From positions 12,522-76,521 of the forward strand of contig JAGVOB010000004.1 in the NCBI GenBank assembly GCA_020052955.1: a stretch of 64,000 bases of DNA, read 5' to 3'. The first letter of the stretch is position 1; each line of letters opens with the position of its first letter. The translations under genes and the position numbers were made by a program. A model generated the notes under the pieces. The model was not told the origin of the DNA and did not search any database. It saw only the letters and a program-made list of their open reading frames with translations. Shown one piece after another: positions 1 through 34,300 of the stretch. This stretch comes from Candidatus Omnitrophota bacterium (GTDB lineage: Bacteria > Omnitrophota > Gorgyraeia > VGKN01).

Positions 1-927
1 TATGGTCTAGAGGATATTTTTGAGATTTCATATGATAAACCAAGGCATACTATCACCGTTAGTCTACAAAATGAAAATCCAAAACCTGCTAAAGGCGGCT
101 CGATATTCCTGACGCCAAAGCATCTTCCAAAGGCATTTTTGGAGACCCCAGCAATCTTCCTTATGACATACGGATTGCTGGAGCTCCCGATAGCGGCTAA
201 CCTCTTAGGTATAGCAGGCGTTCCCTATGCGGTTAGTATTGGATACCTAGTTGCTCACGCTATAGGGGTGCTTCTTGACGCGCGCAGGGAAGGCCATAGC
301 GGATGGAAAGAAGCCCTGCAAACACTTAATCCGTTTAACAGGCCGGAGGTGTATATATTAACAATCCTGACAGGTTTTATAGGATATATGGTAGTGGCAT
401 TCGGCTGGGTAAGCCCGATAACATTAAGCGCGATTGCCGTCCTGACAGGTATCCACTGGCTGATTAACAGGTATTTCTACCCCAAAGAGGTGCGCTCATT
501 ATTCGGCAGGCTGGTTGAGATAGAGGCAAGGCTAAAGAATGATATGACTGATGAGGCGCTTAGCCAGATATCCGATATATTTAACGACATAGGCAATGAC
601 AAGGTAAAGACAGAAACGCTGAAGAAACTCCTGATAACGCGTAGCGGCGCCCTAAATGAGACCTTTGAATCAACAAGCAAGATAATGGCATTGGCTTATA
701 TGCTTTATGAAAATAAAACAGATGAAGCTGCTGCATTTGCGCAACAGCACAATTTAGCAGGCCTTGCTGCACAAGATAGTATAAACTCTATAGTAGATGC
801 TATAAGAGATGCATTGAAAGAAAAAACAGGCTTGGCTGCTGTATCATTGCAAGCTACTCCCGATACAACAACGGCTTCCACCACCATAACACTTAAGAAT
901 TTATTGACTGAACTCACCCAGAAGTAA
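1..927 (+). CDS. 3' end of an upstream paralogous giant membrane protein gene (partial, truncated by window start)
   Basis: Reading frame 1 is open from nt 1 through the TAA at 925-927 (the ATG at 139 is internal). Two TM segments are followed by a helical tail ending ...TTITLKNLLTELTQK*, which resembles the C-terminus of the 20,408-aa ORF (...TTIPRTQTLRELLIEFKQL*). The sequence TAACCGTATCATTTTT at and after the stop is identical to that after the giant ORF. Confidence 0.6.
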   Translation, partial: YGLEDIFEISYDKPRHTITVSLQNENPKPAKGGSIFLTPKHLPKAFLETPAIFLMTYGLLELPIAANLLGIAGVPYAVSIGYLVAHAIGVLLDARREGHSGWKEALQTLNPFNRPEVYILTILTGFIGYMVVAFGWVSPITLSAIAVLTGIHWLINRYFYPKEVRSLFGRLVEIEARLKNDMTDEALSQISDIFNDIGNDKVKTETLKKLLITRSGALNETFESTSKIMALAYMLYENKTDEAAAFAQQHNLAGLAAQDSINSIVDAIRDALKEKTGLAAVSLQATPDTTTASTTITLKNLLTELTQK

Positions 928-950
928 CCGTATCATTTTTTGTGTAACTA
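925..950 (+). other. conserved stop-codon context / 3' flank element (copy 1): TAACCGTATCATTTTTTGTGTAAC
   Basis: Near-identical to 62583-62608 (TAACCGTATCATTTTTAATGTAAC) following the giant ORF stop. Conserved across tandem paralogs. Confidence 0.5.
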
Positions 951-1207
951 TTTATAAAATAATATGTTATATAACAAGATGAGTCTAGGGTATCAGATTT
1001 AATTTTTCCTATACTTTTATTTTTAGAAAGGTCTGATTTTGTTTCTAACATTCAGAAAAACGGGGAAATTAATTAACGCTTCCCGGCAGAGCAACCACAT
1101 AATAATGAATGTATTATGCTTACTTGTAAAATCAAACAAAATTTAGATAATTGATCCTTGTATTTTTATGGAGACAGGATATAATTATAGTATGAAAACC
1201 TTAATGG

Positions 1208-1235
1208 TTGTCAATTTTTTTTGGTACTTTATACT
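1208..1235 (+). promoter_or_regulatory. candidate sigma70-type promoter for the giant gene (TTGTCA - 16 nt - TATACT)
   Basis: TTGTCA at 1208-1213 and TATACT at 1230-1235 in an AT-rich intergenic region about 120 nt upstream of the ATG. Sequence-pattern match only. Confidence 0.3.
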
Positions 1236-1314
1236 GATCTTTACAATTAATTTAAAAAGTTTTCGCGATTGCTTTGAAATTATAAAAATGCAAAATGATA
1301 TATAAACCGCAGCA

Positions 1315-1351
1315 ACGAGTAGAATTTTGATATATAAAAACTCGTAAGGGA
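1315..1351 (+). promoter_or_regulatory. 5' leader hairpin (ACGAGT...ACTCGT, 19-nt loop) abutting the RBS AAGGG
   Basis: Inverted repeat 1315-1320 / 1340-1345 immediately upstream of AAGGG (1346-1350). Possible translational control element; weak. Confidence 0.2.
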
Positions 1352-1358
1352 AACCAAA

Positions 1359-10300: not shown

Positions 10301-13300
10301 AATCGCAGGGAATCCAGAAATTGTATTTGACTATGGAAGCAGTATGGCTATTTGGGTCGAATTTAGAGAGAGTTTAAACTCGCCGGATAGTGCGAAGATA
10401 AAAGTTCTTTTAAATTCAATTTTATCCATTCCTCAGTTAAGGGATTTTATAAATAAGAAAGACCCAGCCCTTATCAAAGATTTAGAGCTTGCCCAGAGGG
10501 TTCTTTCGGGAGAGGTAAAACTTACCCCTGAGGTATGTGAGGTATTAGAGCAACTCGGCGCTAAGCTCACCGATTTAGGGAGAGATAAAGATAATCATGA
10601 AGAATTACTCAGAATTGATAATGAATTAAATCAGGTTATTCTGGATACTTCAAACCAACTGTTAAGCAATATATCTGAGGAAGAGTTGGAGAATTGGTTT
10701 AAGGAGAGAGGAATTACTATTTTGTGGGATGTAAAGGAAGAAGAAAAGCAATTCAGTAAACTTTATTTAGCTACATTAATATCACTTTTCTCCCTGTCAC
10801 AGATTCCGCCAGAGAGATACAGGGACTTGAATATAAGGATTTCTAATGATAGCTTTGCCTACAACTTTAAGACCGATACCATGGAATTTAACTTTCAAGA
10901 TACATTTGAAGGCTGGTATCCGATAAGAAGCGGTTTAATTGATTCAAGGACCACATTAGTTCATGAGATTTCTCATCGCTGGGACCTTAAATATCTGTCT
11001 GAAGACCTAAGAGCCCAGTTTTATAATATCAGCTGGGACTTTGAGCAGGTAAAGCAAAGACAAAGAGAAAGGGATGAAGCAACTGAGAAAGGGGAGAGGG
11101 TTATAATTTTGGACAGCACGAGAGAAGACGCGAATTTAGACAGGGATTTTCTGTGGGGGCACATTGTTCAAGGAGAACTTTCAAGTGGGATGGCAGTTGA
11201 AGACATAGCAAGAACAGTACAGGTCTTATATACAAATCCCTCTTTTGCTGTTAATAATGCTATTGATAACATAACTGAGTATGGAGACCCTGATTTAGCC
11301 CAGAAGATATTTTTCGCTTATGGGTTTTATGGGAGTGTCTCCAACAATGAAATATGGATAATACGCAGTGATGGCGCACCAGTTAATGAGGATGATGGCG
11401 TATATGTTTTTAAGCGAGATGGCAAGGTGTTTGAGGTAAAGATTGAAAATGGCGTAGCTGCAAAACCGCGCGAATTACCCGCTGATTTTAACCCAAATCC
11501 TTTCATACAGAAGTTATTTTCTCAAGCAACACCTCCAAAGCAATTTAGTCTATTGGATGTTATCACGGTCCGTGGCGCCTCTGCGTATACAGGCACAGGG
11601 CAGACAGGAATATTTACGCCTGATGTTCTTGGGTTAGTTGTATTCTTAGGTATATTTGGCGGTATTATTGGCATAAGAAAAAGAGATTTAATTTTTGATT
11701 TTCTACGTCGTGGCTTATCTAATATTCCACGTATCTCGCCACGTCTTGTTATAACTATGCTGGTTCTGTTGCTTGTAGCTACCTCTTGTGCACCGGCACC
11801 AACCGGGGGAAATCCTCGGTCAATAGCAACTTTGGCTCCCCCATATGAAGTAACCGAGACATTAATACCACCTGTTAAAGCTACACCACTTCCAACCGCT
11901 ACACCTTATGCAACAGTAGGGGATTATTTATCCAAAAAAGGTTTACCCGGCACTGTTTCTGAAGCTGAACTATCAAGATTTACGAGCCAGTTATTTGAAA
12001 AGCTTCTTGAGGATATGTATAAGGAAGGAACGCTTCCAAAAGTAGCAGGTTACGAAAAGGTATATACAGAGTTTATTCAGACATTGCGTAAACCCGGCGC
12101 TGTTAAGGTTTCTCCAGATACAAATGTTTTCTATTATATTAACCTTCACTCAGAATTACTTAGTAACGGTGTAATAGCGACAGATATACTTGTAAATAGA
12201 GGTATTATCAGTCCCGATTTTCCGCTTGATTTATTAAAGGATACCTTAAGACATGAATTTGTGCATTTTGTAAATAAAGACCTTACAAGAACCAAACTTG
12301 TGCTTAATGAAAGACTGAGAGAAGCTCTTATAAAGGCATACTCATTGCCGATACCTCAGGATAAAGATAAGGACCCGGACGATAGAGGAATGTATTTATA
12401 TAATAATTTTATTGAGGTACTCAAAAAGGACCAGAATCTGAGAGAAGATATAAAACGCCTGATAGCGGTATTTGTAGAAGACGAATACCTTGCATATGTT
12501 CAGGAGGCAAAATATACGAAAGTGTTGAGTAGTTTGCATCCAGAGTTGCGTATGCACGGTTTCTTTAATCCTGATGGCACAGTAAGGGATGAGATGGGTT
12601 TAAGGCTATGGATACTTGAGAGAACCATCCCGTCTATAAATCCGCACCTTCATCAGTTAGCAAATGAGATAGAAAGAATAGAAGGCAGGGCAGATTACTA
12701 TCCAGTTCCTGCTGGCGAGAAGCCTTACCGAAGATATAGCTTTAGAGCAGCCCATCCCCTAACAGGAAAAGAAGTAATTATTTCTTACCCTCTTATTATA
12801 CCAAAGGTTCTAATCAAGGAAGAAGTAGGCGGTGTTAAAACAGCACTTGGTCTTCCAGAGGAGATATTCGGAGAGGTTGCTCCATATTTTAGAAGAGAAC
12901 AATTAAGAGGAAACTATTTTGAATATCTTAAGAATAAGACTTATAAGGATTACAGAATTCTAGCTCCAAAACCAACCTCTATGTTACCACAGGATACCCT
13001 TATTAGCTTTGCCGGAGATTTAGTTACAGGCTTCCTTACGGCTAATGCCGTCCAGGCCGCAGGCCCAACACTGACCTCGACTAAAGCAGAAGTTGATATT
13101 CCAGGCCTCTTGCTTGTAGGCGGTGCCTCCTTGTTAATAGCCATATTTGCAGTTGCAGTAGCAAGGCCCTTGGGCGGTATGTTTAAGTTTGTATTCAATC
13201 CCCTGCCGTTATTGGTTATCTTAGCAGGAATCCTGCTTGCATATTTAGCGTCTACCGCTACTGTTTATCCTGCAACCCTTACCCCGGAGCAGGCAGATAA

Positions 13301-16300
13301 AGCCGCAACGGTAATTGAAGAAGTATTAAGAGCCCCCACGCCTCCGGGCGCCCCGCAGAAAGACCCGAATAATGAGAAATTCCTCAAATGGCTTGCAGAG
13401 CAGTTAAAGAACTGGGCAGCCCATCCGGAAAGGGGACTTCCGCCTATAGGGGGTGGCCTTATACAGAAACTGGCAAGCCAGAATGAGCAGGCAAGAAAAC
13501 TGCTTGAGGATATTGTGTCCGGAAAGGTAAGGATAATAGTTGATATTAGTTCTGGCGCATCAGTTGAGAAGGCGGGCTTACATCTTAGGTCTATGGCTGA
13601 ATATGCCTTAAGAAATGGTGGTATAGTTGATGGCCAGCGTGTCATATTCTTAGGGATTGAGCCAAAGACAGGCCTGTTTGACGCAGCAGTAAGGCAATTG
13701 GCTAATACTGATAATGTAATCTTAATTCAGAGCGGGCTTGGCAAGCTTCCGCAGGAATTTAAAGGAATAGTATTACCTGACCTTAAATTCTGGAGAGTAA
13801 TTGTTACTGCGCCTGAGCCTGATATGCTGGCAAAGGATTTTGGATTACTTACAGACGCAGCAAGATTAGCGCAGGACAAGGTAATAGTAGTTACCGAATT
13901 TATGCCCACGATGAAAGCGCCTGTGCCAGGAGGGCTTGAAAGCACTCCTTGGTTAGATGCCCTTAAACAGACTTTATCAGCCTGGCAGTATAATCCTGTC
14001 AGAGTAACATCGGATAAAGTGCCTGCATTTATAAATTCAGATACATTTAGATGGTTACAGTTAGGCAAGAGCCAGGTTGAGGGGCTTCGCTGGGGAGGAG
14101 ATTACTGGTATCATGAATTTATGAGAAATGGCGCACCTTCAATTATAATCCTGCCATTTATTCTTGAGAGCCTCAAGGAACAGCCGGTTGTTCCAGCCAC
14201 TCCATCTATTCCTACCCCTGTTTCAGGCATGCCTGGCATATTATCGGGCGTAGGTATGGCATTATCCTTTGCATTATTGGGCGGGGTAATGAGCGTTGTA
14301 TTTATAAAATCTCCGAGGCGTGCAAGAAAGTTTATTATAGCCTTAGCAGGTGCGTTTACGTTAGCTATGCTCTCAGGCGCTCTGATGCCTACCTATGCGG
14401 CAGAAAGACAATTGGGCTTAGGCGTAGTTACTTATAAAGAGAGCGGCCTTGGAGACTATGTTAACAGGTTAAATGCAGATATAGGGGTAAAGGCATTAGA
14501 CCAGGTTGAGATTTTACCCAATACCCTATTTTCTTTTGACTCTTACGTTCAAGGATACATATCTGAGGGCCATCCCCTTAAGGGCGATAAAGAGAAATTT
14601 GGCGCAGGGCTTTGCGATGTAGCAACAGCCCTCAGGCGTTCAATAGAAAACAGTTATGGGCCTCCTGTTATCGTAGAACTTGGAGAAGATGATGTTAGTT
14701 CAGTTGCCTCCATTGAATTCCCTCAAAGGCTGGCTAATGCGACTGTAATCGGTTTTAAACTACCGCGATACGCGGCGATAAATCAGGAACAGGCAAATGC
14801 ATTACTGAGCAGGGTATTAGAAACTTATCCAAATGTAAAGATTGCGTATATATATACCTCTCACGGTGAGGAATTTTATAACGGAGAGGGCGCTTCCGTA
14901 TTTTTCTATGAGAATTTAACAGCGAGTTCACCGCGCCAGGATATCTGGCTCTTAACACAAGAGCCATACCTGATTGATACTAATAGCCCGGATGATACCT
15001 TGCAGGAATTAAACATAAGTTTAATTTCTAAGGCAGCGACAACAACCGAAGACGCGCTTGCCGAGGAAGAGCAATTCACCTTATCAACCCTCCTATCTTA
15101 TCTGACCACCTCGGAGATTAGAGCCCAGGGAGCAGGCGATATAATAACAGCAATTTTAGCCATAATCATTATGGCTGTGTTAGGCAGGGGAAGAATTCCT
15201 AAATTTATTAACGCAATACCCGCACCTTCCGGCAGAGGACGGTTTAATTTACGCTTACCTTCATTGCTAAGGGTTATTGTTTTAGCAGGTTTTGCTCTGG
15301 CATTAGCCGCCTGCGCAACTGCGACGCCACAGCCAACCCCGACACCAATAAGCCAGGCGGATATACCGTCCTATACCGAACGCGTACTTTCCCAGATTGA
15401 TGAGGGAAAATATCCTTTACTGCGGGCAGAGCTTAAGAGAGTAGGCGTAATCAATAACCAGATAGAATATCCGGTAATGGTTGAATATGGCTTAAGCGCT
15501 GACGGCAAAACAGCCACTATTAAGAGCGTTACGATAAATCCCGAGCTTTTCCTTAATATGCCGGCAAATATAAGGGAAAGCTATCTTCTGCACGAGGAAG
15601 AACATTTAAGCCCCGCGAGCCTTGATTTGGCTCGGGCTATTCAAATATTGAATAAACATTTCTTCGGCGGCATAGATTTATCCAAATCAGAAAAGGAAAT
15701 AATGGAGGAATTAAACCGAAGAATCGTAAACGACCCCAAAGAAAGAGAATTATTCAAGCATTACGTTGCCCTGCGCGTCCAATATGAATATCTAGGCAAC
15801 AGGAAGCAGTTTGATTACATACTTAATAATCGGATAGATATAAATAATCTGATAAGCAAAGAACAAAACCCCGGCGTTAAAGCGGTCTTGGGCAATATAA
15901 ATGAATTTATGCAGGTAGCCCAAATTGACAAGCCGCAAGCTCAGATAAACGAGAGAATCTTTAAAATAGCGATACTCAGAAACCCAATATGGAATGACCC
16001 ACGGCTAATTTATGATTTTACCCTGGCTATTGAGCAGATAGAGCATCCCGAGCTTAAGTTAGTACAATCCGGCGGCAGATGGCAGATGAGCCCGGCTTAT
16101 ATAGGCACTGACGGACTTCCCACTCTGCCGATATGGGATTATCTCACCATACCTGATTATTATTCGCCCGATATCATAAATACTCTCCAGCAGTCTGCAG
16201 TTGGCGTGCCCCACCTTGCAAGGCCCGTTTCGCCCGCTCTGACACAGCCCCTGACTGCAGGCCAGACAGGCATATGGGCAGTTATTATAGGTATATTATT

Positions 16301-19300
16301 TAGTATCTTATTTATAAACAATCCTATTACAAGAAGATTCAAATTAACTTGGTTAAAGCGCATTGCTATTTTAGGAGGTCTTCTCATTCTATTGACCGCC
16401 TGCTCAAGGCCACAGGCTTTACCAACTGCAACACCTACTATGACACAAACCGCAACCTATACCCAGACGTCCACAGCCACGTATACTTCAACGCCGACAC
16501 AAACATTCACACCGACATCAACTTCTACACCGACAGAAACGCCGACATCTACGCCGACCGAGACGCCGACCCAAACGCCAACTTTGACGCCTACAGCAAC
16601 ACCTTTACCTCTCCAGAATTTTTTAGCTGGTGGAACTAACATTGGAAGCTGGTTGATATTTTTCATAGGATTTGGCGTATTATCATTTGGCGTTATAGTC
16701 CTATTACATAAAACAATTAACCTCAATAGCATTGGGCTTACATTAGGAGGTTTAATAGTTGTAGCGCTTGGAGCTGTTGGTTTGTATTACAGCTCTCAAG
16801 TACAAAATTTCGCTAAGCCGGCAACTGCTATCCAAAAGGCAATAGACTCTACAACGCTTTTTCTTGTCAGGGCAGGCGTCTTTTTAACAGGAATAGAAAT
16901 AATGTATTTATCAGCTCTGGTTATCTCTTTCATCTTAAGTAAGATTAAAATATTAGGACCATTCGCGAAGGTTTTCAGCTTGATAGGTAAGATATTGAAA
17001 ATACCGCTAAAAGAACTGTTAAAAAAACCGGTACTAGGACTAATAACTCTCGCGATAATTATTCTCCCATTTCTTATGCGCCTTATTCCTTTGCCAACCT
17101 CTTATGCTATTCAGCAAGGAGACTTTCAACTGATAGAAACATTACTTTATCTCAGGCATCCGATAACAGTAACTGACAAAGATGCACTTATACAAATAAT
17201 AGGCAAATTATATGATGAGGGCAACGGCATCACGCGATTTTATGTTGCAGACCCTTCAACAGGAGATTTAAAAAGCGTTGACGCGTACTATCTGCTGGCA
17301 TATCCCGAATCAATTAATTTTACTCTAACCCGTGAAAAGGACAAGGACGGCTATTACATAAAGATACAGGAAAATAAGATACAAGAAATTACTCCTACTC
17401 CTCAAGGTTCTATCCCGGGTGCACCACACCTTGCAAGACCCACTATGCCAGAGAGCCAGGTTGCTGTCTCGGGGGTGAATACCCTGTCCACATTTATTAT
17501 AGGTATATTATCCCTTATCTTATTCACAAACAATCCTATTACAAGAAGATTCAAATTAACTTGGTTAAAGCGCATTGCTATTTTAGGAGGCATTCTCATT
17601 CTGTTGACCGCCTGTGCAACTGTGACTCCAGTGCCTCAGGAGGCGACAATACAGCCCGGAAGCCTTGAAGAACTGCAAGTGAGAATAATAGAAAACAGGC
17701 TGATTAATGAACTCTTATTCAATTATGAAAACCAGGAGGCAATAATACAGGTATCCCGGGAATATGAAGTTGACCCGCGATTGTTAACCTCTGTTGTTAT
17801 GATGGAGATTGCAAGCCGCGATCCAAGTGAAGATTTATGGGATAATTTAAAAGATGAAGCCAGGGAAATATTAAACAGAGACCTTGAGGCTACCTCTTTC
17901 GGTATAGGACAGATACGAATTGACACAGCGCGCGATATGCTCGGCTACCTAAAGGCAGAGAACAAGCTCGGCGATTTGGAACTCGGCTACCTGATACAGG
18001 AATCATTTTCGGATGAGAATATAGAGAAAATCCTTGAAAACGACCATGACAATATCTACATAGCAGGAAGGTATGTAAGATGGATTATAGATACATTAGA
18101 AGGCGCGGGCATAGAGGCAGATATTTACACCGTAGGATTCGGCTATAATGGTATCGGTCGGATAACAAACTTTGATGAATTTGAGCCGGAAGTGCAGCAG
18201 GCGATAAGTGACTACAGGGCCGAACACACAGAAATATTCAAGCTGGTATATAATGCCACATACTACGAGTCATTGCTGAAGATTAACTATCTGCCTTCAT
18301 GGTCGTCATATCTTCTGGGAGCGCCTTCTAGCGCAGGAGAATTTATCAATGGTTTCTATGATGCCGATTCAGTCGGTTTTAAGAGCTACTGGGCGGTTTA
18401 TGACGGCGTATATACAAAACCGCATAACATCCTTCCTGAATTTAGCGGTTTATACAATGCCTCCGTATTCGGCGAGGTGCGCTCAGGAGCCATTAACCTT
18501 CCTGACGGCAGGGTTCTTCAGATGTACGAAAACAGCATCCTTGAGCTTACCTCCAATGGCATAGTCAAGCAGTATCCGTATGCGGCGTATATTTTGCAGG
18601 GGATGCGCTCGGGATTCGACCAGGATTTCATAAATCATCTATCGGCATCGCCCAATGTGCCGGGGAAATTCTCTAATTTTATAGCCTCAAATAATATCGG
18701 GGCACAGCTGGGCTCGCTTCTTACTGACGCATTTGACATGAAAAACTTCCCAATTGACGGCGGTGAAAAATCCGTCAGGATACAATTCTTTGAAGGAGGC
18801 GTGCTCATAGCGGAGAAAAATTTGCTTGGAATTCCCGGGGACGTAAGGCTTGCCACGGTAGATTCGGTAGTCAGATATCTTGAGTCAGTGCACTCCTACG
18901 CATATGATATGCCGCCTTACGATCCTCTCTTAAAACCGCAGCCGGCTCCAACATCAACCCCGCTTCCAACGCCTGAGCTTGGGTCGTATATTGTGCTTTA
19001 TTCGGTTGGCCAGACAATAGAGGTGACTACAAAGCAAGCCATCATTGATGTTATTATGGCCACTAACCAGCGGAGGATAGCTCATCAAGAAGAGTCCATT
19101 CAGTATTTCTATCCCGAGACCCAGTGGACAGGCGAACCCTATGCCCATTATCTCGGGGATGTAACCAGAGAGAGCCTTGTCGAGCTTCTTAAGGATTTCC
19201 CTGACTCGGGATTTATTATGCGCCTTACACTCCAGCAGGGTGACGTCGCCCCGTTTATCAGGATAACCGAGATTGAAACAACAGGTGCTGTTTCGCCCGC

Positions 19301-22300
19301 AAAACAATTCAGCCTGCTTGATTATTTATCAGTAGGCACTGCACAGGCAAGAACGCCTGGTGTCCTACCTACCCTAACATCTACATTTGACTGGCTGGGC
19401 TTGGGATTATTGGGATTATCGTTAGCCCTTGCATTCGGCATAGTAAGACTTGCCCACCTACGCGGTGGGACAGGGCGGCTTAGTCGAAATATTTTATTGT
19501 GGGCGGGAGTTGCTTTGGTAGTTAGTATTGCCTTAGCCAGCGGTATCTTTTGGTATTTTACACAGGATATGTCCTTTAAAGATTGGACAGCGGGCACGGC
19601 TTACTTTCACGAGCAACAAACTAAACTTATAGAGCCTATAATTAATACAGAAGATGTTCCGTTAAGAGACACTGGTTTCAATTTTCAAGAACTTGATTTG
19701 ATATGGCATCGGTCAATAGATAGTTTAATCTTAGATCCTAATAGACCCGAGGAGTCCAATCTTTCGATGCGGAAGCTTAATTTTATCCTGTATGAGAGGT
19801 TTTCCATAGGTTACTACCCAAGTTGGTGGCAAATCTATGAAATTCGCAGGAATTTTGTTGCGCAGAATTTTGATGAAATTATAGCTCTCATTGAAAAACT
19901 TAATCCATCCGATTATTCAGATTTTGCAACTCAGTGGCAAGCAGTACGCTTGAGAAATACCCTGATACGGCTTGTTTGCGATGGAATAGTAAGAGGATTT
20001 CCATCAATTGATTACAATAAATTGGACATAGTAAAACCAATTTTGCTTAATGATGAATTAATTGTTAAATTTGGTTGGAATTATGCGGGAAGCAATTTAA
20101 TGGATTTATTTTTAGATAAGAAAAATGACCTACCTCCTCTGATTCCCCCTGTCATTAATGAAGCACAAGCAGAGAGAACTCTTGATTTATTTACTAAATT
20201 ACTCGAGTCTTATAATAACACCGATTATAGCACGCTAAGCGAAAGTGATTCTAATCTGCTCTATTTCTATGAACGCAACGAGGTAACAGGTATTGCTATG
20301 CAGGAACCACTTAAATTTGAAGCATGGAGAGAATTAGCACAGTCTCTGAAGTACCTTTCTGATTATGCTCCTACTCAGCGTATCCGTGAACGCGCAAACA
20401 ACTTACTTTCTCGTATTCCGTTAGAAATTGTTAATGACCCTCGCATTGAAATAGCAAATAGGGAATATGGAGATGGGACGCACTATCTTACGCGTGAATC
20501 ATATCAAACTGCGGTAACTTACTATGAAAACCAGATGGGTTTGAAGGGAATACGTCAAATCCCGATTTGGGATGTTAACGCGGTAGCCTATGTTAGAAGA
20601 GAAGTAACACCTAAGATGTTAGAATATTTTGCTGAAAGCTCTCAAGCCCACGATGTGCCTGTAGATTTTCCCATAATTATGTGGTTACGAGATGATATGT
20701 TCCAAGCTAGAATGCCGCTATATACAATTGGAACTGGATTAGCTCACATTAAGACATTTTTTAATTATGATGGTGTTGGCGGTCGTATCGCAGATACTCT
20801 ACTTAGAGTACTTCCGGATTGGTTTTTGAATAAAGCTCTAGAGGATAGACCTGCAAAAGCTATTTTAGGGCTTATCTTTAATTCAGCTGGTTCGTTGACA
20901 ATGCAGGTGCGCGTAGATAGACCACAGAATACTGATGATTTAGGTATACGCTCAGATGGTTTATGGGAGCGTTTGGTTAAAAAGGGTTATGTAAGTGACC
21001 CCGCAACCCTTTCTAACAGAGAAGTTACATGGCTTTTGTTAACTGATCAGCGGCTTGCGATTGAAGCGGGAACAGCGATGTTATCAAGAAAATTCCAAGA
21101 CCCAAAAACTGGAGATTCCTTTAGACAAGATTATTATAATTATCAACGCTTGTTACCGGAAGGTTTTGACCGTCGAAGTCTTATAAGAGGGTGGTTTGCC
21201 CCAAATTTTTATAGTATATTTGGACCTAATCTGGGATTTGAACTTTATGGTGGTTATCTTACAAATGGCATTGCTATAGGAGAAGACTACTTTTTCGACC
21301 TTTACCTCGTCCTGTTAGAATCTGGTGTCTTGGATTCACTCTATGGCGAACCTGTCCCTGCGATTATAGTGGGAATCTCAAAGTTAGAAGAGTTAAAACA
21401 GGTGGGCAGATGGGCTAATGGTAGAGATGCAGGGAAGGACCCATATATCCAAGAGGCAGCACTGCGCACTCTTAGGGAAATAGCTCAAGATACAGAACAT
21501 CCAGAGATGGCTATTGAGGCTCAGAGGATACTCGGCATACTTGAACAAAAGAGCGCCCTCGCAGGCATAAAGACACAAGGCGTAAGCAATATCTGGCAGG
21601 GTTTGGCTATGGTATTGAGTTTTGGTTTAATTGGAGGGGTGTTTGGAGGAGTCTTTACGCCCATAAAAAGATTAAGAGACAGGTTGCAGGGAAGGGTTAA
21701 GTCAAGGACACTCGCCAATATATTAACAGGAGTTGTATTGGTTCTCGGGCTAGGCCTGATAATCGGATCCGGTTATGGAATAGCTTTATTGATTAACTAT
21801 CTTACACCATTTAATGTCCAGACACAATATCTCACAATTACCGATGCCTCTTATAAAACTACAGACCAATCGCGTATCGGCGAGGTGCTTGGCTTTTCTA
21901 ACGATATGCCTGTAATCTCGCCTATCCAAGGGCTAGACGTAAATGTTGACCTAAAAAGCAGTGTAATAGACGCCAACATATTAAACTTTACTATCAGCCC
22001 AAGAGAGGGCGAGACCTTAGAAGGTATAGAGGGCTTTGTAATTATAGTTATAAAGGATAACAGAGGCAACGAATGGCATAAGCCAGTAGTTATTCAACCC
22101 AATCAGAGCGAGTACTCAGTAGTTATACCCCCAGATAACAACATAGAATCCATAACATTTAGTTCTCATATATTGGATGATAAAAGGGTAAACATATCCA
22201 ATATAGCGCTTACCAATGGCATGAATGTGCCGGTAATCATGAGCAATGGAACCATTAAAGCAGTGCCCGCCCACATAGACTCAGCCAAGCATAACCTCAT

Positions 22301-25300: not shown

Positions 25301-28300
25301 CACTGCCTGTGCGCCTTCTTCAACCGCAACACCGGTTACGCCGACAGTTACATCTACCCCTGCACCAATACAACCTCCTGCTACGCTGCATCTTCCGACG
25401 CCTGCACCCGGTTCTTTTGGTTATGTATTTCAAGGCTATAGGGACGATAAATTATTTGAGGGGTATATGCTTACAGACGATGGTGTGCTTACTTTGCCGG
25501 GCGTTAATGGCAAGATATGGCATAGTATTCCTCAAACCAATGTAAGTGAGAATCATTTCCTGAACTTTACTGTAAAGACGCCTGATGGCAGCCACGGCGT
25601 GTATATAGAAATAAGAGACGCTGGTGGTAACCTTATAACCGGCGATAAGATATGGGTAGAATTCCCTGATACTTCTATAGAAGTATCAGGCGGTTTTGTT
25701 ACATATTCTATTAATCTAGAATCGCTTCTTACAGGCGACAATATGCAAGCCACTTCTTTTGGTTTCTTAAATCCGGATGGCATAATTCAATTAAAAGGAG
25801 AGCCCGCCTTTGGCGATACACCCACAGGTAAAATGCTTGTATATCACGAAGCGCTCTACGGCTTTAACTCAACGCCTATAACCGAAGCGCCTGTGGTCAA
25901 TCTTCTTTCAATATTTGAATTCATAGCGAGCGGTGTTGGGATATGGGCGTCTATTCCCGAGGGCGTTGAGATCGACCTTACAGCGCAGAATTACTTAGAA
26001 CTGACCGCAACAACAAATGACAGAAACACCACAGTCTGGTTAGAACTTGTGAATGAAAAGGGTGAATATCTGGCGACAAATGAGGAGGAACCCCAGGCCG
26101 GTATAGAAAGGATTAAAATCATCATTCCCAATACAGAGGGAGTCCCAAAAACTTTTTATTATGATTTAAGCGAGTGGCTAACAGCGGACTTGGCAGATTA
26201 TAAGGTGAATATAATCCGCATCTCAGATACGGTTACAGGCACAGAAGGCACAGAGATTACCGAATTTAAGTTTGTCTCGGAGCCTGCAGGGGAAGAAGTG
26301 TCTATTGAAATAGTGCCTAAGAAAAAGCCGGTGCCGCTACCTTATGAGTTTATAAACCTTAGTATTATTCCAAATTCTACTACCGGTACAAATTACTACA
26401 TCCAAAAATATGAGACTCCAGTAGCGGGTAATGATGTATATGTTTCTGGTGGTGGAGCCGGACTGAGTTATAACCTAGATGAAACAACAGGTTCATTTAT
26501 GGGCGGAGTGTTTAGCGTTAGGAATCCAGAAACATTTCAAAATTATGATTATCTTATGGTGGAGATCGGCGCTGATCATAATGGAGCCGCGCCTTTTATT
26601 GAAGTTAAACCTAATGATAAAGACACCTATTTTGTACGCGGTAACGTTTTGTATATACCAATGAGCGAGATAGGTGAATTGAAAACAATTACCCTTGGTG
26701 TGAGTTATTATTCAGTAGAAGGCGGAGGATCGGGAATTACATACGGCTCGGGCACTGTTGATTTCAGGATACGCGGAACCAATACACCACCCCCTATCCA
26801 GACCAGCCAGAGTTCTGCGCCCGGCTCAGCCCCCACCTCACAGCTACAACAGCAGCCGCCATACCTTGCCGGATTTTTGGCAACACCCGGCATGCTTGTA
26901 TTCCTAACCAGGATTAGAGACTGGCTAAGAAAGAATAAGAGGAGAGTGATATTAACGCTATCTATATTATCGCCTATTCTATTACTTGCAGGTGCTTATG
27001 CAGGAGCGCGTATCTATGGCAGTGGTTTCTCAATGGAGCATGCCATTCAACTACCAGCACCAATGCCAACGGTTGAGCAAGTCAATAATCAATGGCTGAT
27101 TAATGGCAGGGTTGCCTCTGATAAAACCCTTGAGGCAGTTGATATAAAGGCAATTGATACTGCTATTACAGAAGGCAAAGCCGACAGATTATTCTGGGAA
27201 GGAATATTCTCCAATTACCCAAAAGACGTCCCGGTATCTTATCTTATAACACCAGAGCGTATTAAAACTCTATATGAGACAAAGCAATTAGACCATCTCT
27301 TTAACGGCTTAAGGACACAGCCTGACTTACTCTACCGCTACCTCTCTGAAATCCCAGAAAATCAATTAACAGACTTTGCCAGATACTTTGCTACACTAAA
27401 ACCAGGCACAAGGCAACAGGTATTTGATATATTATACCATCGCCTAAGAAATGACCTTCTAATCTTAGAGAATTTAGGCACTATAAAACCCGGTTACACA
27501 GCTCTATTAAAACAGTCAAATCGTATAGAACTTTTATATGCCACAATGGTTCAGATGCTCAATAGGATAAGGCCTATTGTTGCAGATAGACTTATAAAAG
27601 AAGGGCTTACTGAGGATCAGATTCAGGAGGGTATTAAGGAAAGCCGTATAACAAGCATGCCATTTGAAGATATTATTGTGAATAAAAACTGGATTACAAA
27701 GGAGAAACTAGATGAAATCAGAACCACTACTTTACCAGACGGACCTGTAGCTCCTATGCCAGATATGGGGTTGACAATGAGTGAATCAGAAGTAAGCTTA
27801 TATAAAGTATTTTCTGATGTGATGCAGGAATATAGAAGTAGCGGTTATACAATTATATTGCCTGCTCCAAAAAATGTTAATGTTAACGAAATTAATGGAT
27901 TGATTGAATACTATACTACAAATAGGCCAAGAAGCGGTTATTTCTTGCAAGAAAACAAGTCTGGGTTGCTCTTAGAATGGGTTATGAAACAGACAAATCC
28001 TAACAATCCATTAAGTCATATGGTGAGCGATAGAGAACTCTTAAGAGAAGCTATGCGCTTACATATTGAACCAGACGGGTCAATAGATCTATTCAAGGTT
28101 GTAGCAACTATAGGACATTACTATAAAGCTATGGCGAGAAACCCAAGTCTTATACTTGGTGGTGCTGAGGCTCGTGGACTAGAAGATGGCGCTACATTCA
28201 TTGGCGTACGCCATCTACCCATACTTTTGATAGCAACACTTGATCCAAAAGTCAATTATACAGTTGACGAAAATGGACAGCCTGTTCTATTTTGGCGGCC

Positions 28301-31300
28301 AGTAGACATCGATGGCAATGATCGGATTCCGTTAGGACAGCGTGTTGGCATATCATGGCATTCCATTGAAGATGATCTTTATCATTCTTGGAACTTTTTA
28401 TTAACTGCTTTATATGTTGACGCAAAATCCTTGCCCGAAATAAAAATTGATTTTGAAAACTTTATTCAAAGGTTTCCTGAAAGCTACCGCCATTTAAAAA
28501 ATACTTCATTCGTAGAAGTTTTCACTACTACGATAAAGCTATTATCATATGAAAGGAAAGAAGGCTTTTCTAATGAGACAGGTAGTATGATGATGGGAGA
28601 TCTTCCAATATTGTATAAGTATGTACGAATTTTAAGATTAGATGAGATTGGCATGTTAAATTCTTTTAGTTTTGGCACAGGTGAATTGGGAAAAAGTGAA
28701 GAAAAAACAAAGCTACTGTTTGCTGAGGTTGGGCGGGATATATATCAACAATCTGGAATAATGTTTGTAGATAGAAAAGAATCGTTAATTCCTGAGTCTG
28801 ATGTATTGAAAGATATTAAAACACTAGAAGGTGGCATATCTCTTGAAGAGCATAATGATATATTTGTTATTCAAGAATGGAAGATGTCAGGTGAACCTAC
28901 TATTGAAGAATGGGCTTTCAGCGATCCAAAACATTTTTGGGAAATTGTTGAAAAAATTAGAGTAAACAGCGAACAGGCTACAGAGAAACATGTTAATCTT
29001 GATTTTCCTTTCACTTTAGAAGATGTGCAATTGCGCCTTGAAAATAAAATGCTAAATGTCTCAGATTTTATTACCTATGGGTCGCCATATTTAAAAGAAA
29101 AAATCGCATCTACTACAAAATCAGTGGAGCTACTTGATTTATTAACAGTTGATGCAGATGTTAAATTTGTTGTTATAAACAACCCAAATACTTCACTTGA
29201 GACGTTAATGCGATTATCCTCCGATCCTGATAGAGAAGTGAGAAGATCTATAGCGATCAATACAGCAACTACTCCTGCGATGTTAATAGAGTTGACATCT
29301 GATTCAGAAGCCAATGTTAGGTTTGTCGCTGCTTTTAATGAAAACGCACCGCTTGTTGCCGTTGCTCTCGCAGTTTTTCTGAAATCAGATGAATATATGA
29401 GCCTTAACTATAGCGCCACATATGATAATAGGCCAACAATAGATGAAATGTTTCAAAATCGTTACTTTGGTCTTGGAACTCATATGGTTAAGATATATAA
29501 CCAATGGAATGGAATTTTACCAGGCGAGAGGCTTCCATCTGATCTAATCGAGAAATTAATTCAAGCCGAACCACTCTTTAAACGCGCAGTTGAAGAATTG
29601 CCGGATAAAACCTGGGATGAGGTTCCTATAACAGGAGATATCAATAAGGATGTAACCGCATTAATCAATGCTGTAGAAACAGCACTAAATACCAAAGCAC
29701 AAGCACCCGAACTACCCACCCTAACCTCACAGCTACAACAGCAGCCCCCATACCTTGTAGGCTTTTTGGCAACACCCGGCATGCTTGTATTCCTAACCAG
29801 GATTAGAGACTGGCTAAGAAGGAATAAGAGGAGAGTGATATTAACGCTATCTATATTATCGCCTATTCTATTACTTGCAGGTGCTTATGCAGGAGCGCGT
29901 ATCTATGGAAGTGGCTTCTCTCTTGAACATGCCATTCAACTACCAGCACCAATGCCAACGGTTGAGCAGATAGATGGTAAATGGATTATGAATGGAAGGG
30001 CTGCCTCTGATAAAACCCTTGAGGCAGTTGATATAAAGGCAATTGATACTGCAATTACAGAAGGCAAAGCCGACAGATTATTCTGGGAAGGAATATTCTC
30101 CAATTACCCAAAAGACGTCCCGGTATCTTATCTTATAACACCAGAGCGCATTAAGGCTCTATACGAGACAAAGCAATTAGACCATCTCTTTAACGGCCTA
30201 AGGACACAGCCTGATTTACTATACAGATATTTCTCTGAAATTTCAGAAAGCCAAATGACAGACTTTGCCAGATACTTCGCCACCCTTAAACCCGGTACAA
30301 GACAGCAAGTATTTGACATATTATACCATCGCTTAAGAAACGACCTACTTATCTTAGAGAATTTAGGCACTATAAAACCCGGATATTCTACCTTACTAAC
30401 ACAGTCCAACCGTATGGAAATCCTCTATGCTACAATGACCCAAATGCTAAATAGAATGACTCCATTGCCTGTAGGTGAACTCCCAGACGGCCCTGTTGCT
30501 CCTATGCCTGTTATGGGTCTTACAAGAGAGCGTTCTATAGATAACCTCTACAGAACATTTGAAGAGGTTATCACAGACTATAAAAATCAAGGCTATACCA
30601 TAACACTGCCTACACCTGATAGCGTTAATGTTTCTGAAGTGGTTGGGTTAATTGGATACTACAACAGCCTACCTGATTTTTCTTTGAGAGATAATCAATC
30701 TGCGCAGCTCCTTGAGTGGGTTTTAAAACAGACTGACCCAGAGAATCCATCTGCGCATATGGTAAGTGATAGAGAGCTCTTGATAGAAGCAATGCGATTA
30801 TCCGCTGGGCCAGATAGAACAATAGATTTATTTAAGGTTATAGCGACCATCGGGCATTATTATAAAGCAATGGCTAGAGCCCCATATTTAATCCTCGGTG
30901 GCCCTGAAGCTCGTGCTAATGAAGATGGTCCAACCTTTATAGGCAGACGTCACGACCATATGCTTTTGGTCTACTCTTTAGACCCAAAAGTTGAATATAG
31001 TGTGGATGAAAATGGCCAGCCGGTCTTACGCTGGAGACCAGTGGATGCGGATGGTAATGATTGGATTCCGGAAGGTGAACGTGTTGGAATTAACTGGCAT
31101 GCCATTGATGATAATCTTTATCATTCTTGGAATTTTATTCTCACAAATCTATATATCGAGGCCAAGTCTCTTAAAGAAATCGGTAACGACTGGGAGAGTT
31201 TTTATCAAAGATACCCATCCTCAAATGAATATAAATCTATGAAAAGCACTTCCTTCTTAGATGTTTTTGTTGCGGGTATAAGAATGTTACAAAACCCAGA

Positions 31301-34300
31301 ATCCGCCGGTAAGGTAGGTACTGCAAATGAACAAGATCTCCCATTGTTTAATAAGTATTTACACCTTGCCGGTATAGATGAGTTTTTCTTACGGTACTTT
31401 ACTTTTGGGTTATTTGGATATATAGAACGAGGCGGTAGTGAACCGCTAACTAAAGCAATATTTGCAGAAGTTGGAAGAAGAATCTATCAGAAGACAGCAG
31501 ATGGTGAATCCGACGTAACTTTGGTACAACATCCTGAAATATTAGTTTCTGGCACCTGGAACATTAGAACTATCGGAGGCGGTAGATCGCTTGCAGAGTA
31601 TAACGATAGCATTATAAGAGAATGGAGGGTGTTGGGTAAACCTTCAATTATCAAATGGGCTTCAGATGATCCTGAAAGATTTTGGGAAGTTGTTGCAGCA
31701 ATTGATCAACTTACTCTATTGGCGAAGTTAACAAATGCCAGTATTAACCCTCCTTTTACTGTAGAAAGTGTAATATCGGCTATTGAGGAAGGGACTTTAG
31801 TAAATGAGTATCCCTCATTTAACCATTGGAAGCAAGATATTTTATCTTATCCGCCAGAGGTGCTCGATATATTAGCCTTAGATACTGACCCCGAGGTGCG
31901 AAGAATCGTAGCAGAAGATATAGAAGCTTCACCCAAGGCATTAGGATTTTTAGCCTTGGATTCAGATCGTGAAGTGAGGATATATGTAGCAGCTAATAAG
32001 GGCGGTAATGTTCCGGCTGACGCATTAATGTTGTTGATTAGGGATAAGGATCCTTTGATAAGCGGGCATGCGATATATAATCAAAATACTCCTCTTGCCG
32101 GTCTTGTCCTTGGAATGTCCCTTGTAAGTGATAATAGTCAGATTAAAATTAAAGATATAGAATCCCAATTATCACAAAGATTTAATGGTTTAGGTACTCA
32201 TATATTTATTGTCTATAGCCGGTGGAATGATATTTCGCAGGAACAGGAAATCCCACCAGAAGTAATCAACCAACTTCTTGCGGCCGAACCTCTCTTTAGG
32301 CGCGCAGTTGAAGAATTGCCAGATAAGACCTGGGATGAGGTTCCTATAACGGGGGATATTAATAAGGATGTAACCGCATTAATCAATGCTATTGAAACAG
32401 CATTAAATACCAAAGCACAAATACCTGAGCTACCAGGTTTAGCGCCAACACAGCCCGCTGTACCTGCGCAGTTACCCACCCCCACCTCACAGCTACAACA
32501 GCAGCCCCCATACCTTGCCGGCTTTTTGGCAACACCCGGCATGCTTGTATTCCTTGGCAAAATTAAAGACTGGCTTAGGAGGAATAAAAGGAGAGCGATA
32601 TTAACAGCAACAACCATAGGATTATTACTCTGTTTTGGAGCAGGTGCCACTTATTTTATAGTTAACCGTACGCAACAGCCTGTAGTTACGACAACCTATA
32701 CAATAACAGATCTGGATAGTTTGCTGGTTAAATTAAACAGCACAAACCGCATAGTAAGACAGCAAGCCTCTGAGGAGATAGCGCGGTTAGCATATGATAA
32801 TCCTCAAGAGGCAATAAATATTATTAACAGGCTTGAGAGATGGTCTATAGAGGTTCTAAATACCCCTGATAAAAAATTGAAATGCTATCCTGAACTTTTG
32901 GATGCCATAGTTAAAATCGGAACCCATATATATAGTGATAAGGAACTGGATAGACAAATCACAGAGGCAGCATTCGCAAAGCTCTTAGAGTTCTTTGATA
33001 CTGAGAATGAACAACTTGCAGGGTTTGTCCGTGACGCGATACTCAATTTTGCAAACAGGGTTAATACGCCAGAGGTGTTGAGCAAAACAGTAAAGATTGA
33101 TGTTTTAAGAGGAAATCTTGAGCGTTCAGACAGCGGTCTTAGGGCTATATACAATTTATTGGGGACATCAAAGAATGACAGGGTAAGAGAGATAATTTTA
33201 AAGATGTTAGAAGAACTACCTACAAGAGCACCCATTTTTGACCCGGCACATACAGGAGGTTTGTGGTTTAGGTATCTTTTTGAGGCATTTATGCCCATAA
33301 TTTCAGATGGCAGAAATAAACAGTTAAGCGACCTTGCTGCGAGGGTATTGGTGCAGGTGACAGTATCCCAGATTAAATCTACCGAAACCCATGGTTTTTC
33401 AGAGGGCGATATTTATCTTGTTACAAACGGCTATCTTATAGGAACAGGTCTTCCTGGAGGGATTAGCGATTACAGAAACTTCTTTACACCCATTACAGGT
33501 GAAATTGACCAGGTAAGGGCTAAGGGCGACAAGTTTACAGAACTGAGACTTCTCTGGGTGCTTGAGCAGTTAGGGATAAAAGTTATTATAAGCGGGATAG
33601 AACGAACAGATAATCAGGGAAGGATTATTGCGGAAAACCAGGTTCAGGGATTAGTGGAGTATCTAAATAAAAACTATCCTGCTGATTCAGGTAATTTAAC
33701 CATTACTAAAGTTGTGGCGCATAGAACACTTATTGCAATGACAGGAGGAAGACTTCAGAGATATGTTGAGACAGCGCAGAACCTGCCGGGCGTGTGGGAA
33801 AGAAGAACCGAGTACAACAATCTAACCTCTTCCATTGGAAACTCAATATCAGTGCTTGAACAGGCGTATAATTCCACCGACCCGGTTCTTCATGAATTGG
33901 CAGTGGTATCTATGTTAGATTTGCTTAAGAATGACTTTACCACTCCAAGGGAAGTTTATGAACCGCTGATAAGACTTTTAGTAGAAAAAGCTAATAAGGG
34001 CGATACAGACGCAAGCAAGATATTAATTGCCGTTGTAAGCGATGCAGATATAGGATTTGAAATTGTTGAACCTCTCTTTAGAATCCAGGGCGTAAACATA
34101 GGTGTTAGATCCGGCTTCCAACCTACTGACACATATGTAAGGAGATTTACGAATGAAAGGGTTGATGAAAAGTTGAGAGCCCAGTATGCCCAGATGGCCC
34201 AAGGCGATATTAATTATATAGCGCTGGGCAATTTATTAGAAGTCAAAAATGTGCTTTCAGAACAGGGAGATATTGCCAATGCCTCTGAGAGCTTAACGTT

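Follow-up and report, generated by a model that had tools for sequence, protein, structure and literature searches.

We identified, within one giant open reading frame (ORF) of the window (the whole 64,000-nt stretch of DNA analyzed), a tandem pair of modules, units 1 and 2. The two are very probably old paralogs, with an old duplication and a later conversion tract giving the best explanation overall. Judged from the sequences, only the first ~0.5 kb is young, having been homogenized by gene conversion between units 1 and 2. The split of the two units would be older than the divergence of the window genome from that of MAG contig L004 (CAZDNS010000003.1), our only close comparator, and the ~0.49-kb tract would have been homogenized between the copies after that divergence. 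As an evolutionary process this is ordinary; what is unusual is the gene.

The giant ORF and its repeat units

All repeat copies lie in a giant ORF outside which the window holds almost nothing. The upstream ORF at 139-927 gave no match in a Pfam search, and the strand opposite the repeat carries merely mechanical ORFs of 93-145 aa, with no sizable ORF that would explain the repeat. The landmarks of the giant ORF are as follows.

1359-62585, + strand: giant ORF, 20,408 aa, enclosing all repeat copies
aa 879-1187 of the giant ORF: SecY domain (Pfam)
aa 1471-1650 of the giant ORF: SecA_DEAD domain (Pfam)

The SecA DEAD-like domain is divergent (PF07517, E = 2.4e-9, 37.3 bits against a cutoff of 24.6). 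Also present are HEAT repeats (HEAT_2, E = 4.5e-19; HEAT_PBS, E = 3.5e-12) and further Pfam domains (LRV repeats, DUF3131, PRK/uridine kinase, cytidylate kinase, and HD), and the product, a membrane protein, shows ~90 hydropathy peaks, counted by the Kyte-Doolittle scale only rather than by a dedicated TM predictor. Using the SecY-like region as a query retrieved ordinary SecY proteins only, at 25-27% identity, and no fused relatives.

The units and their parts are laid out below.

26835-29723, + strand: unit 1, aa 8493-9455 (963 aa)
26859-27008, + strand: hairpin of unit 1; helices modeled, with low pLDDT
aa 8501-8516: helix 1 of the unit 1 hairpin, PYLAGFLATPGMLVFL
between helix 1 and helix 2: basic loop of the unit 1 hairpin, TRIRDWLRKNKRR
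aa 8530-8550: helix 2 of the unit 1 hairpin, VILTLSILSPILLLAGAYAGA
27591-27731, + strand: 47-aa segment (aa 8745-8791) exclusive to unit 1 relative to unit 2 and the L004 unit
28395-29564, + strand: fast-diverging C-terminal half of unit 1, including LRV/HEAT-like repeats
29565-29723, + strand: conserved tail of unit 1, beginning AEPLFKRAVEELPDKTWDEVPITGDINKDV
29724-32483, + strand: unit 2, aa 9456-10375 (920 aa), architecture as in unit 1
29748-29897, + strand: equivalent hairpin elements of unit 2
32283-32483, + strand: tail and linker of unit 2
32484-32612, + strand: third copy, start of a unit only, aa 10376-10418 (43 codons)

From N to C terminus, unit 1 comprises a hydrophobic hairpin, a conserved N-terminal core, a variable LRV/HEAT-like C-terminal half, and a tail that is conserved in all family members. 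Unit 2 lacks the 47-aa insert, and the Pro-rich linker at its end is 14 aa longer. We found the motif SQLQQQPPYL at nt 26838, 29727, and 32487; the start-to-start distances of the three copies are 2889 and 2760 nt, and all are in frame in one ORF. Of the unit starts given in the initial annotation, 26838 was exact, and 29726 and 32486 were each off by 1 nt. Its truncated third unit is real over 43 codons, 84% identical to units 1 and 2 at the amino acid level (pS 0.25-0.29), and consists of the first hydrophobic helix and the basic loop only; 3′ of it come a different second helix and then an unrelated module. We counted three U-type heads in the giant ORF and no more. By the positive-inside rule, applied to hydropathy and charge alone, the basic loop of the hairpin may be cytoplasmic; the two flanking modules would then both lie on the outer side.

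A whole-protein self-BLAST of the giant ORF product returned the self match only, and self-similarity was measured by BLASTP of 300-aa chunks. Matches between units 1 and 2 were continuous along the entire unit, with an E value of 2.9e-133 for aa 8493-8700 against aa 9456-9663, far beyond chance. The proposed intragenic tandem duplication of a ~2.8- to 2.9-kb unit in one ORF is upheld. The label "recent" that came with it is contradicted by the divergence of the unit bodies and by the relation of unit 2 to L004.

Divergence along the units and comparison with L004

Identity between the two units is a mosaic. They share 63% of residues overall, ~94% of nucleotides across the first 491 nt, 90-97% of residues at their ends, and 25-55% of residues through the greater part of the body; the C-terminal half by itself stands at 24-50%. 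Ungapped nucleotide identity was 92.3% over the first 300 nt, 94.0% over the first 480 nt, and 89.9% over the first 700 nt, so that an earlier figure of more than 90% across some 700 nt is borderline. The units had also been described as ending in identical 60-aa segments; the tail has ~52 aa, with 48 identical residues and a longest identical run of 30 aa. Synonymous-codon identity was ~0.9 in codons 1-160 and 0.25-0.6 further on, and among same-residue codons, 131 of 144 were identical between the units in the head vs. 224 of 394 in the rest (Fisher p = 2.8e-15).

We calculated dS and dN by the Nei-Gojobori method per segment for unit 1, unit 2, and the L004 unit. In the head (codons 1-160), dS was 0.156 between units 1 and 2, 0.73 between unit 2 and the L004 unit, and 0.80 between unit 1 and the L004 unit. 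Between units 1 and 2, dS reached 1.40 in codons 161-245 and was saturated at 1.4-1.6 over codons 161-920, or ~80% of the unit, where values above 1 are qualitative only. In codons 246-520, dN was 0.13 between unit 2 and the L004 unit, 0.28 between units 1 and 2, and 0.31 between unit 1 and the L004 unit. In the C-terminal half it was 0.56-0.64 in all three pairs, this region being fast even between orthologs (0.56 for unit 2 and the L004 unit). The tail was a further candidate for a conversion tract specific to units 1 and 2; we rejected it because dS there is similar in all three pairs, including those with the L004 unit (0.44-0.55).

Our genome and metagenome scans yielded L004 and a handful of distant comparators. 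L004 is recorded as "uncultured Planctomycetia bacterium," and more distant module homologs occur in Omnitrophota MAGs. In the 21.8 kb covered of its 69 kb, L004 contains one unit, at 9173-11884, and its module order differs from that of the window; the copy number that had been thought likely to vary does differ in the visible part of this related genome. The L004 gene may have a unit 1 ortholog elsewhere or may have lost unit 1 later. The L004 unit has a head at its start and a tail plus linker at its end, the same as the window units, and it has the 47-aa indel in common with unit 2.

These three sequences define the putative conversion tract.

26835-27325, + strand: conversion tract, unit 1 copy; 29 differences in 491 nt, dS 0.156 to unit 2
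29724-30214, + strand: conversion tract, unit 2 copy
27080-27112: 33-nt variable patch within the unit 1 tract, divergent in all three sequences (units 1 and 2 and the L004 unit)

The tract extends over the hairpin and ~115 residues at the start of the core, and within its bounds the paralogs are closer to each other than the orthologs are. In the head, 33 informative amino acid sites group units 1 and 2 against the L004 unit, with 4 sites for each of the other groupings; in columns 246-520, 50 sites group unit 2 with the L004 unit against unit 1, and the other groupings have 16 and 7. Neighbor-joining trees with 11-12 outgroup homologs switch topology between tract and flank, uniting units 1 and 2 in the head (aa 44-160, bootstrap 100/100) and unit 2 with the L004 unit in the middle (aa 300-520, 100/100), where the L004 unit is the ortholog of unit 2 and not of unit 1. 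Since the middle groups unit 2 with the L004 unit and the head groups units 1 and 2, the duplication would predate the genome split and the conversion would have come later. The head of units 1 and 2 would thus look recent because conversion overwrote its first ~0.5 kb. The tract has no sharp downstream end because the three sequences are about equidistant in codons 161-245 (bootstrap 7/42/51).

The 90-97% amino acid identity of the unit ends would also be expected from a recent duplication of the whole unit, the body of which then diverged quickly, through positive or relaxed selection, between conserved ends, and the C-terminal half does evolve fast between orthologs. Such a history is extremely unlikely, however: fast protein evolution would not selectively saturate synonymous sites in the body (dS 1.4-1.6 vs. 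0.156 in the head), and the grouping of unit 2 with the L004 unit over aa 300-520, together with their common indel, speaks against it.

Alternatively, purifying selection on the nucleotides themselves, for instance on an mRNA signal that directs membrane targeting or on a pause in translation at the hairpin, could keep the heads alike; in three independent cases, high synonymous identity coincides precisely with hairpin-coding segments. The L004 head encodes the same element, yet its dS to both copies is 0.73-0.80, no lower than in neighboring segments. The three sequences agree in residue at 111 head codons; units 1 and 2 use the identical codon at 99 of these, but only 75 are identical to L004. 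An Rfam scan of the window found no RNA family. We consider this explanation very improbable.

Equally improbable is an assembly artifact, in which the near-identical heads or the second copy would stem from misjoining or strain chimerism. The window looks metagenome derived, its relatives are MAG contigs, and repeats within giant genes are known to break up assemblies (West-Roberts et al. 2023, bioRxiv 10.1101/2023.11.21.568195). Nevertheless, the 61-kb frame is intact through all junctions, the bodies are so different that neither is a duplicated read pile, and the independently assembled L004 unit has the same head, tail, and linker. With a longest exact repeat of 95 nt and heads that differ at 29 positions, the assembly hazard raised in the initial annotation was overstated; in all probability the assembly is sound and the number of copies stable.

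A rare module with a C-terminal LRV-like part

The unit is a rare module, with ~16 cluster representatives in 1.84 billion proteins. Searched against a protein database, unit 1 had no close relative (36% identity at most), and the other family members retrieved share 29-39% amino acid identity with the units. The module also occurs in multimodule homologs and as stand-alone proteins of 0.9-1.4 kaa, whose gene neighborhoods show nothing remarkable and no conservation.

The C-terminal part of the unit matches LRV proteins (PF01816/PDB 1LRV), with E = 3.5e-8 to 1lrv_A in a PDB profile search and a Foldseek probability of 0.99; in unit 1, Pfam places an LRV match at aa 9267-9291 (26.9 bits against a cutoff of 21.6, in a 4000-aa chunk). 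Unlike in LRV proteins, the LRV portion makes up merely ~100 of the 960 residues of the unit. The ~650-aa core belongs to no family in Pfam or NCBIfam and has no structural match of significance; it is conserved and, in the structure model of the unit, made without the L004 sequence, all-alpha. The 47-aa insert gave a weak MshEN/GSPII-like signal that falls short of a match above the curated cutoff combined with the fold of the MshEN/GSPII c-di-GMP-binding domain, and a similar insert is present in the distant homolog P0021. MshEN is a cytoplasmic domain type in known proteins, and the weak signal in unit 1 would argue for a cytoplasmic location.

Proposed duplication at hairpin joints and the growth of giant genes

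The original duplication would have occurred by unequal homologous recombination between two hairpin-coding copies flanking a single ancestral unit, an event that would yield exactly the order hairpin-unit-hairpin-unit-hairpin (stub)-next module. The hairpins would be in-frame joints between modules and so a homologous substrate for recombination between them. The third-copy stub is what unequal recombination between hairpin-coding repeats should leave behind. The module 3′ of the stub has an ortholog in L004 with a different first helix; a U-type helix 1 before this module is therefore peculiar to the window.

Alternatively, unit 1 could have been inserted by recombination, through the shared hairpin, with a paralogous module located in a different giant gene or at another position. 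The window and L004 differ in module order, a counterpart of unit 1 is not visible in the 21.8 kb covered there, unit 1 keeps the insert also found in P0021, and hairpins of one type recur before unrelated modules. We nevertheless regard an insertion as rather unlikely. Apart from the L004 unit, units 1 and 2 are each other's closest relatives (63% vs. 29-39% amino acid identity), the alternation of hairpins and units is the classic product of unequal crossing-over, and further U-type copies are absent from the 61-kb gene.

A homogenized junction next to a diverged or unrelated body was found in three independent cases. Besides units 1 and 2, these are a second hairpin pair in the giant ORF (aa 4975-5016 and 5379-5420), with pS 0.17 and unrelated modules downstream, and L009/P0008, in which the junction has pS 0.06-0.2 vs. 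0.6-0.9 in the body. It is conceivable, and we suggest it tentatively, that hairpins are kept alike within a gene by repeated conversion and act as joints for duplicating, deleting, and reshuffling ~1-kaa modules, which might be a general growth mechanism of bacterial giant genes. The two related genomes also differ in their module order.

The giant ORF is similar to SecA-bearing giant proteins already described from Omnitrophota, the archaeovorin type (West-Roberts et al. 2023, bioRxiv 10.1101/2023.11.21.568195). Both are single ORFs of tens of kilobases in which many TM helices are predicted and a divergent SecA DEAD-like domain occurs along with HEAT-type repeats and enzyme domains dispersed over the protein. 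The archaeovorin type is also characterized by a neighboring type II secretion-like locus; beside the giant ORF here, the window has almost nothing, and the upstream ORF has no Pfam match. The giant ORF differs in that its 20,408 aa fall below the 30-kaa cutoff of the 2023 set, the genome record closest to the window is labeled Planctomycetia rather than Omnitrophota, and SecY is fused into the giant ORF, whereas the 2023 paper has SecYEG as separate genes. The term "duplication" occurs only once in that paper. A long-protein catalog concluded that internal repeats in such giants go back for the most part to ancient duplications that have lost their nucleotide similarity, and "gene conversion" has 0 occurrences in it (bioRxiv 10.64898/2026.06.07.730766); the unit bodies match its conclusion. 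In concerted evolution, paralogs are more alike than orthologs over a tract (PMC2720389; for bacterial antigens, PMC4534519). Unlike the concerted evolution of short repeats, which homogenizes whole repeats, the tract here is confined to the junction of ~2.9-kb units in one gene.

PKS/NRPS megasynthase genes are likewise very long, with repeated modules and conserved intermodule segments that serve as substrates for duplication, swapping, and conversion. They have no sequence or functional relationship to the present gene, in which the joints are hydrophobic hairpins and not docking or linker domains.

What had been read as domain accretion in progress appears to be old accretion followed by concerted evolution that continues at the junction of the modules, and the "recent" appearance of the repeat reflects a short conversion tract. 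The pair offers a concrete, dated example of bacterial giant-gene construction: a module found elsewhere as a protein in its own right was probably duplicated in frame at a hydrophobic-hairpin joint, and the copies later diverged, with a 47-aa insert kept in one and a fast-evolving repeat region in both. Sequence exchange at the joint continues. If the junction pattern is general in giant genes, it would explain how they grow and reshuffle without breaking frame.

A tandem repeat of uneven divergence

A single ORF (1359–62585, + strand; 20,408 aa) fills nearly the whole window (GC, 41.7%). A motif search of the window placed the motif quoted in the initial annotation at nt 26838, 29727, and 32487, and a direct-repeat search found the repeat copies 2889 and 2760 nt apart. 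When the protein was compared with itself by chunked BLASTP, aa 8493–9455 matched aa 9456–10375 continuously (E down to 2.9e-133), with an additional short match to aa 10359–10430. The repeat is real and far beyond chance:

nt 26835–29723, + strand: unit 1 (U1), 963 aa
nt 29724–32483, + strand: unit 2 (U2), 920 aa
nt 32484–32612, + strand: stub, 43 aa

The initial annotation had thus located a genuine repeat, and three of its details required correction. Identity across the first 700 nt, described as >90%, is 89.9% (94.0% for the first 480 nt); the supposed 60 identical tail residues are 48 of ~52 residues in common, with an identical run of 30 aa; and the truncated third unit, although present, is only 43 codons long.

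Aligned U1 and U2 share 63% amino acid identity overall, distributed very unevenly along the unit. Synonymous sites were used to tell age from constraint.

Amino acid identity and Nei–Gojobori dS between U1 and U2 along the unit
Codons 1–160: identity 82–97% (first ~160 codons, 40-codon windows), dS 0.156
Codons 161–245: identity 85–90%, dS 1.40
Past the 47-aa indel: identity 53–78%
Codons 246–520: dS 1.65
C-terminal half of the unit: identity 24–50%
Codons 521–920: dS 1.49
Last ~55 residues: identity ~90%
Tail (conserved unit end): dS 0.55

Among codons for the same residue, the identical fraction is ~0.9 in codons 1–160, drops sharply to ~0.6, and then lies between 0.25 and 0.6. The head (first ~160 codons) has 131 of 144 codons identical vs. 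224 of 394 in the rest (Fisher p = 2.8e-15). The longest exact run between U1 and U2 is 95 nt, and 12 of the 29 differences in the head tract are bunched at 27080–27112:

nt 26835–27325: head tract (unit 1 copy), 29 differences in 491 nt

Relative timing of duplication and homogenization

Scanning a single genome from each species turned up a related locus, L004 (contig CAZDNS010000003.1; GC, 41.8%), in a MAG labeled "uncultured Planctomycetia bacterium" and bearing a related giant ORF. Certain modules are ~90% identical in amino acid sequence to the window (e.g., window aa 4051–4641) and lie beside differing neighbors, module order and content being different in the two loci. The ORF of L004 changes (frame 3–8717 vs. 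8552–21841) at ~8552–8680, where the sequence is a run of N from masking or a scaffold gap, and the two long open frames there may thus be one gene. The regions compared are as follows:

Window aa 3867–4959: L004 1014–4376
Window aa 10362–11746: L004 15206–19390

Within the 21.8 kb compared, L004 has a single unit (R, 9173–11884) vs. two units and a stub in the window. R begins with a head of this type (SSQLEQQPPYLAG...) and finishes in the tail and linker seen in the window, and an extra lipobox-hairpin module separates it from the next shared module. Across codons 246–520, U2 and R are 72–92% identical in amino acids (dN 0.13) vs. 42–78% for U1–U2 and U1–R (dN 0.28 and 0.31, respectively). 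U2 and R also have in common a 47-aa deletion relative to U1, and the distant homologue P0021, like U1, carries an insert at this position. Informative amino acid sites in columns 246–520 divide 50:16:7 for U2R|U1, and neighbor-joining trees with 11–12 outgroup homologues grouped U2 with R over aa 300–520 (100/100). The head gives the reverse: sites divide 33:4:4 for U1U2|R, the trees grouped U1 with U2 over aa 44–160 (100/100), and dS is 0.156 for U1–U2, 0.73 for U2–R, and 0.80 for U1–R. From these segment-wise rates, the indel, the informative sites, and the trees, we conclude that the duplication most likely predates the split of the window and L004 genomes, itself a deep one (dS about 0.75), and that the head was probably homogenized between the two window copies afterward.

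Nucleotide-level constraint does not account for the head identity, because dS is ordinary in the corresponding head of R. The tail was rejected as a U1/U2-specific event, since its dS is alike in all three pairs (0.44–0.55); its similarity is general conservation.

The 20,408-aa protein contains just three U-type heads. The one in the stub consists of the first hydrophobic helix and basic loop (TSQLQQQPPYLAGFLATPGMLVFLGKIKDWLRRNKRR), followed by a different second helix and then an unrelated module, whose orthologue at L004 15206–19390 has another first helix in front of it. This layout, head–body–head–body–head (stub)–next module, is the expected product of unequal homologous recombination between two heads flanking a single ancestral unit, which would have generated the duplication. 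A live but less likely alternative is that U1 was inserted from a paralogous locus by way of this head homology. Our preferred reading, which we hold with good confidence, is an ancient in-frame module duplication whose hairpin/head was later overwritten along a ~0.49-kb gene-conversion tract. The initial interpretation therefore stands as to tandem duplication but not as to recency, and the assembly hazard that it raised is not serious.

In a 2026 preprint, internal repeats are reported to be the rule in long Omnitrophota proteins and mostly to reflect ancient duplication with dissolved nucleotide similarity rather than recent tandem expansion (bioRxiv 10.64898/2026.06.07.730766). The U1/U2 bodies agree with this conclusion, the conversion tract being a local exception. 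Because tandem paralogues are well known to undergo gene conversion (e.g., PMC2720389), the tract is an instance of an already known process.

Architecture of the unit and the giant protein

Each unit opens with two helices, the first moderately (PYLAGFLATPGMLVFL) and the second strongly (VILTLSILSPILLLAGAYAGA) hydrophobic, joined by a loop containing 6–7 basic residues. The positive-inside rule would put this loop in the cytoplasm and the modules on the external side. Body homologues are stand-alone proteins of 954–1408 aa (32–36% identity over 95% of length), in which a basic stretch and hydrophobic helix likewise precede the body. Only ~16 true core homologues came out of an exhaustive profile search against 1.84 billion cluster representatives; the proteins that contain them measure 414–7449 aa, and one (P0019) has the core twice. 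All other matches, numbering in the thousands, cover LRV/HEAT-like repeats only. In metagenome loci, the module lies at the N terminus of one protein (3832 aa) and also occurs in another of 1435 aa. As a working view, we take the core to be a membrane-tethered module for scaffolding or binding. Aa 251–295 of U1, an insert present in that unit only, gave a subthreshold NCBIfam match to an MshE-related c-di-GMP motif (E = 2.3e-4; 20.9 bits vs. a cutoff of 38), a possible signal that we treat as a lead only and that hints at the topology opposite to that from the positive-inside rule.

The C-terminal half, with its LRV/HEAT-like repeats, is hypervariable (window ~28395–29564 in U1 and ~31150–32280 in U2; L004 ~10700–11700). 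Even the orthologues U2 and R are 14–56% identical there (dN 0.56), whereas their N-terminal halves reach 75–95% and their tails 93%, and our working view is therefore that this half evolves very fast.

The host protein matches the giant "Archaeovorin" proteins of Omnitrophota as described by West-Roberts et al. (2023), sharing with them many transmembrane segments, HEAT repeats, and a divergent SecA DEAD domain. It also contains a full-length SecY domain fused ~280 aa upstream of its SecA DEAD-like domain, and enzyme domains of cytoplasmic-type nucleotide metabolism lie between polytopic membrane segments near its C terminus:

3990–4922 (aa 879–1187): SecY domain, PF00344, E = 3.2e-36, profile positions 2–303 of 306
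5769–6308 (aa 1471–1650): SecA DEAD-like domain, same ORF
11787–11789 (C3477): lipobox-like Cys
15312–15314 (C4652): lipobox-like Cys
16401–16403 (C5015): lipobox-like Cys
17613–17615 (C5419): lipobox-like Cys
25308–25310 (C7984): lipobox-like Cys
56778–57341: uridine kinase/PRK, Pfam E = 6e-18
57549–58046: cytidylate kinase, Pfam E = 3.9e-25
60627–60848: HD domain, Pfam E = 9.5e-7

The fused SecY is just 25–27% identical to ordinary SecY proteins of 425–439 aa. The 2023 giant-gene preprint describes SecA domains on giant proteins and SecYEG as separate genes (bioRxiv 10.1101/2023.11.21.568195), and "SecY" is absent from the text of the 2026 preprint (bioRxiv 10.64898/2026.06.07.730766); a protein with its own translocon channel and motor may be unreported. 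The protein has only 27 Cys among its 20,408 aa, and the contexts of five resemble a lipoprotein lipobox (LAAC, LTAC three times, and ATSC). Each of the five ends an internal hydrophobic helix, with a K/R-rich stretch before and a Pro/Thr-rich linker after, and they look like internal lipoprotein signal peptides. Given such helices, lipidation of the giant polypeptide, or its cleavage into individual lipoproteins by signal peptidase II, is conceivable.

Homogenized joints between diverged modules

The window ORF has a second hairpin pair, lipobox-type (NNPITRRFKLTWLKRIAILGG.LILLTAC), with nearly identical coding segments (pS 0.17, pN 0.07) followed by unrelated modules, a PT-rich/polytopic segment in one and a nonhomologous soluble segment in the other:

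16281–16406 (aa 4975–5016): first hairpin
17493–17618 (aa 5379–5420): second hairpin

An unrelated multimodule protein, P0008 (3832-aa ORF at 9221–20719 of metagenome locus L009), has three copies, 78–85% identical, of a junction segment of ~200–300 aa spanning one module's end and the next hydrophobic hairpin. Its pS is 0.06–0.2 in two copies compared codon by codon, vs. 0.6–0.9 (synonymous sites saturated) in the ~1000-aa module bodies, which are 21–47% identical.

Further, older internal duplications were seen in the window ORF (30–49% amino acid identity; pS 0.62–0.72 where measured):

aa 1637–1752 / 1766–1879
aa 2751–2891 / 3363–3526
aa 7601–7915 / 8016–8320
aa 11913–12042 / 12632–12767
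aa 16561–16737
aa 16858–17043 / 17151–17325

These show module duplication to be a recurrent feature of the giant gene. In all three cases, the U1/U2 repeat, the aa 4975/5379 pair, and P0008, the hydrophobic joint is homogenized and the modules are not, a pattern that supports, without proving, a model of recombination at the joints as the route by which modules are gained, lost, and reshuffled.
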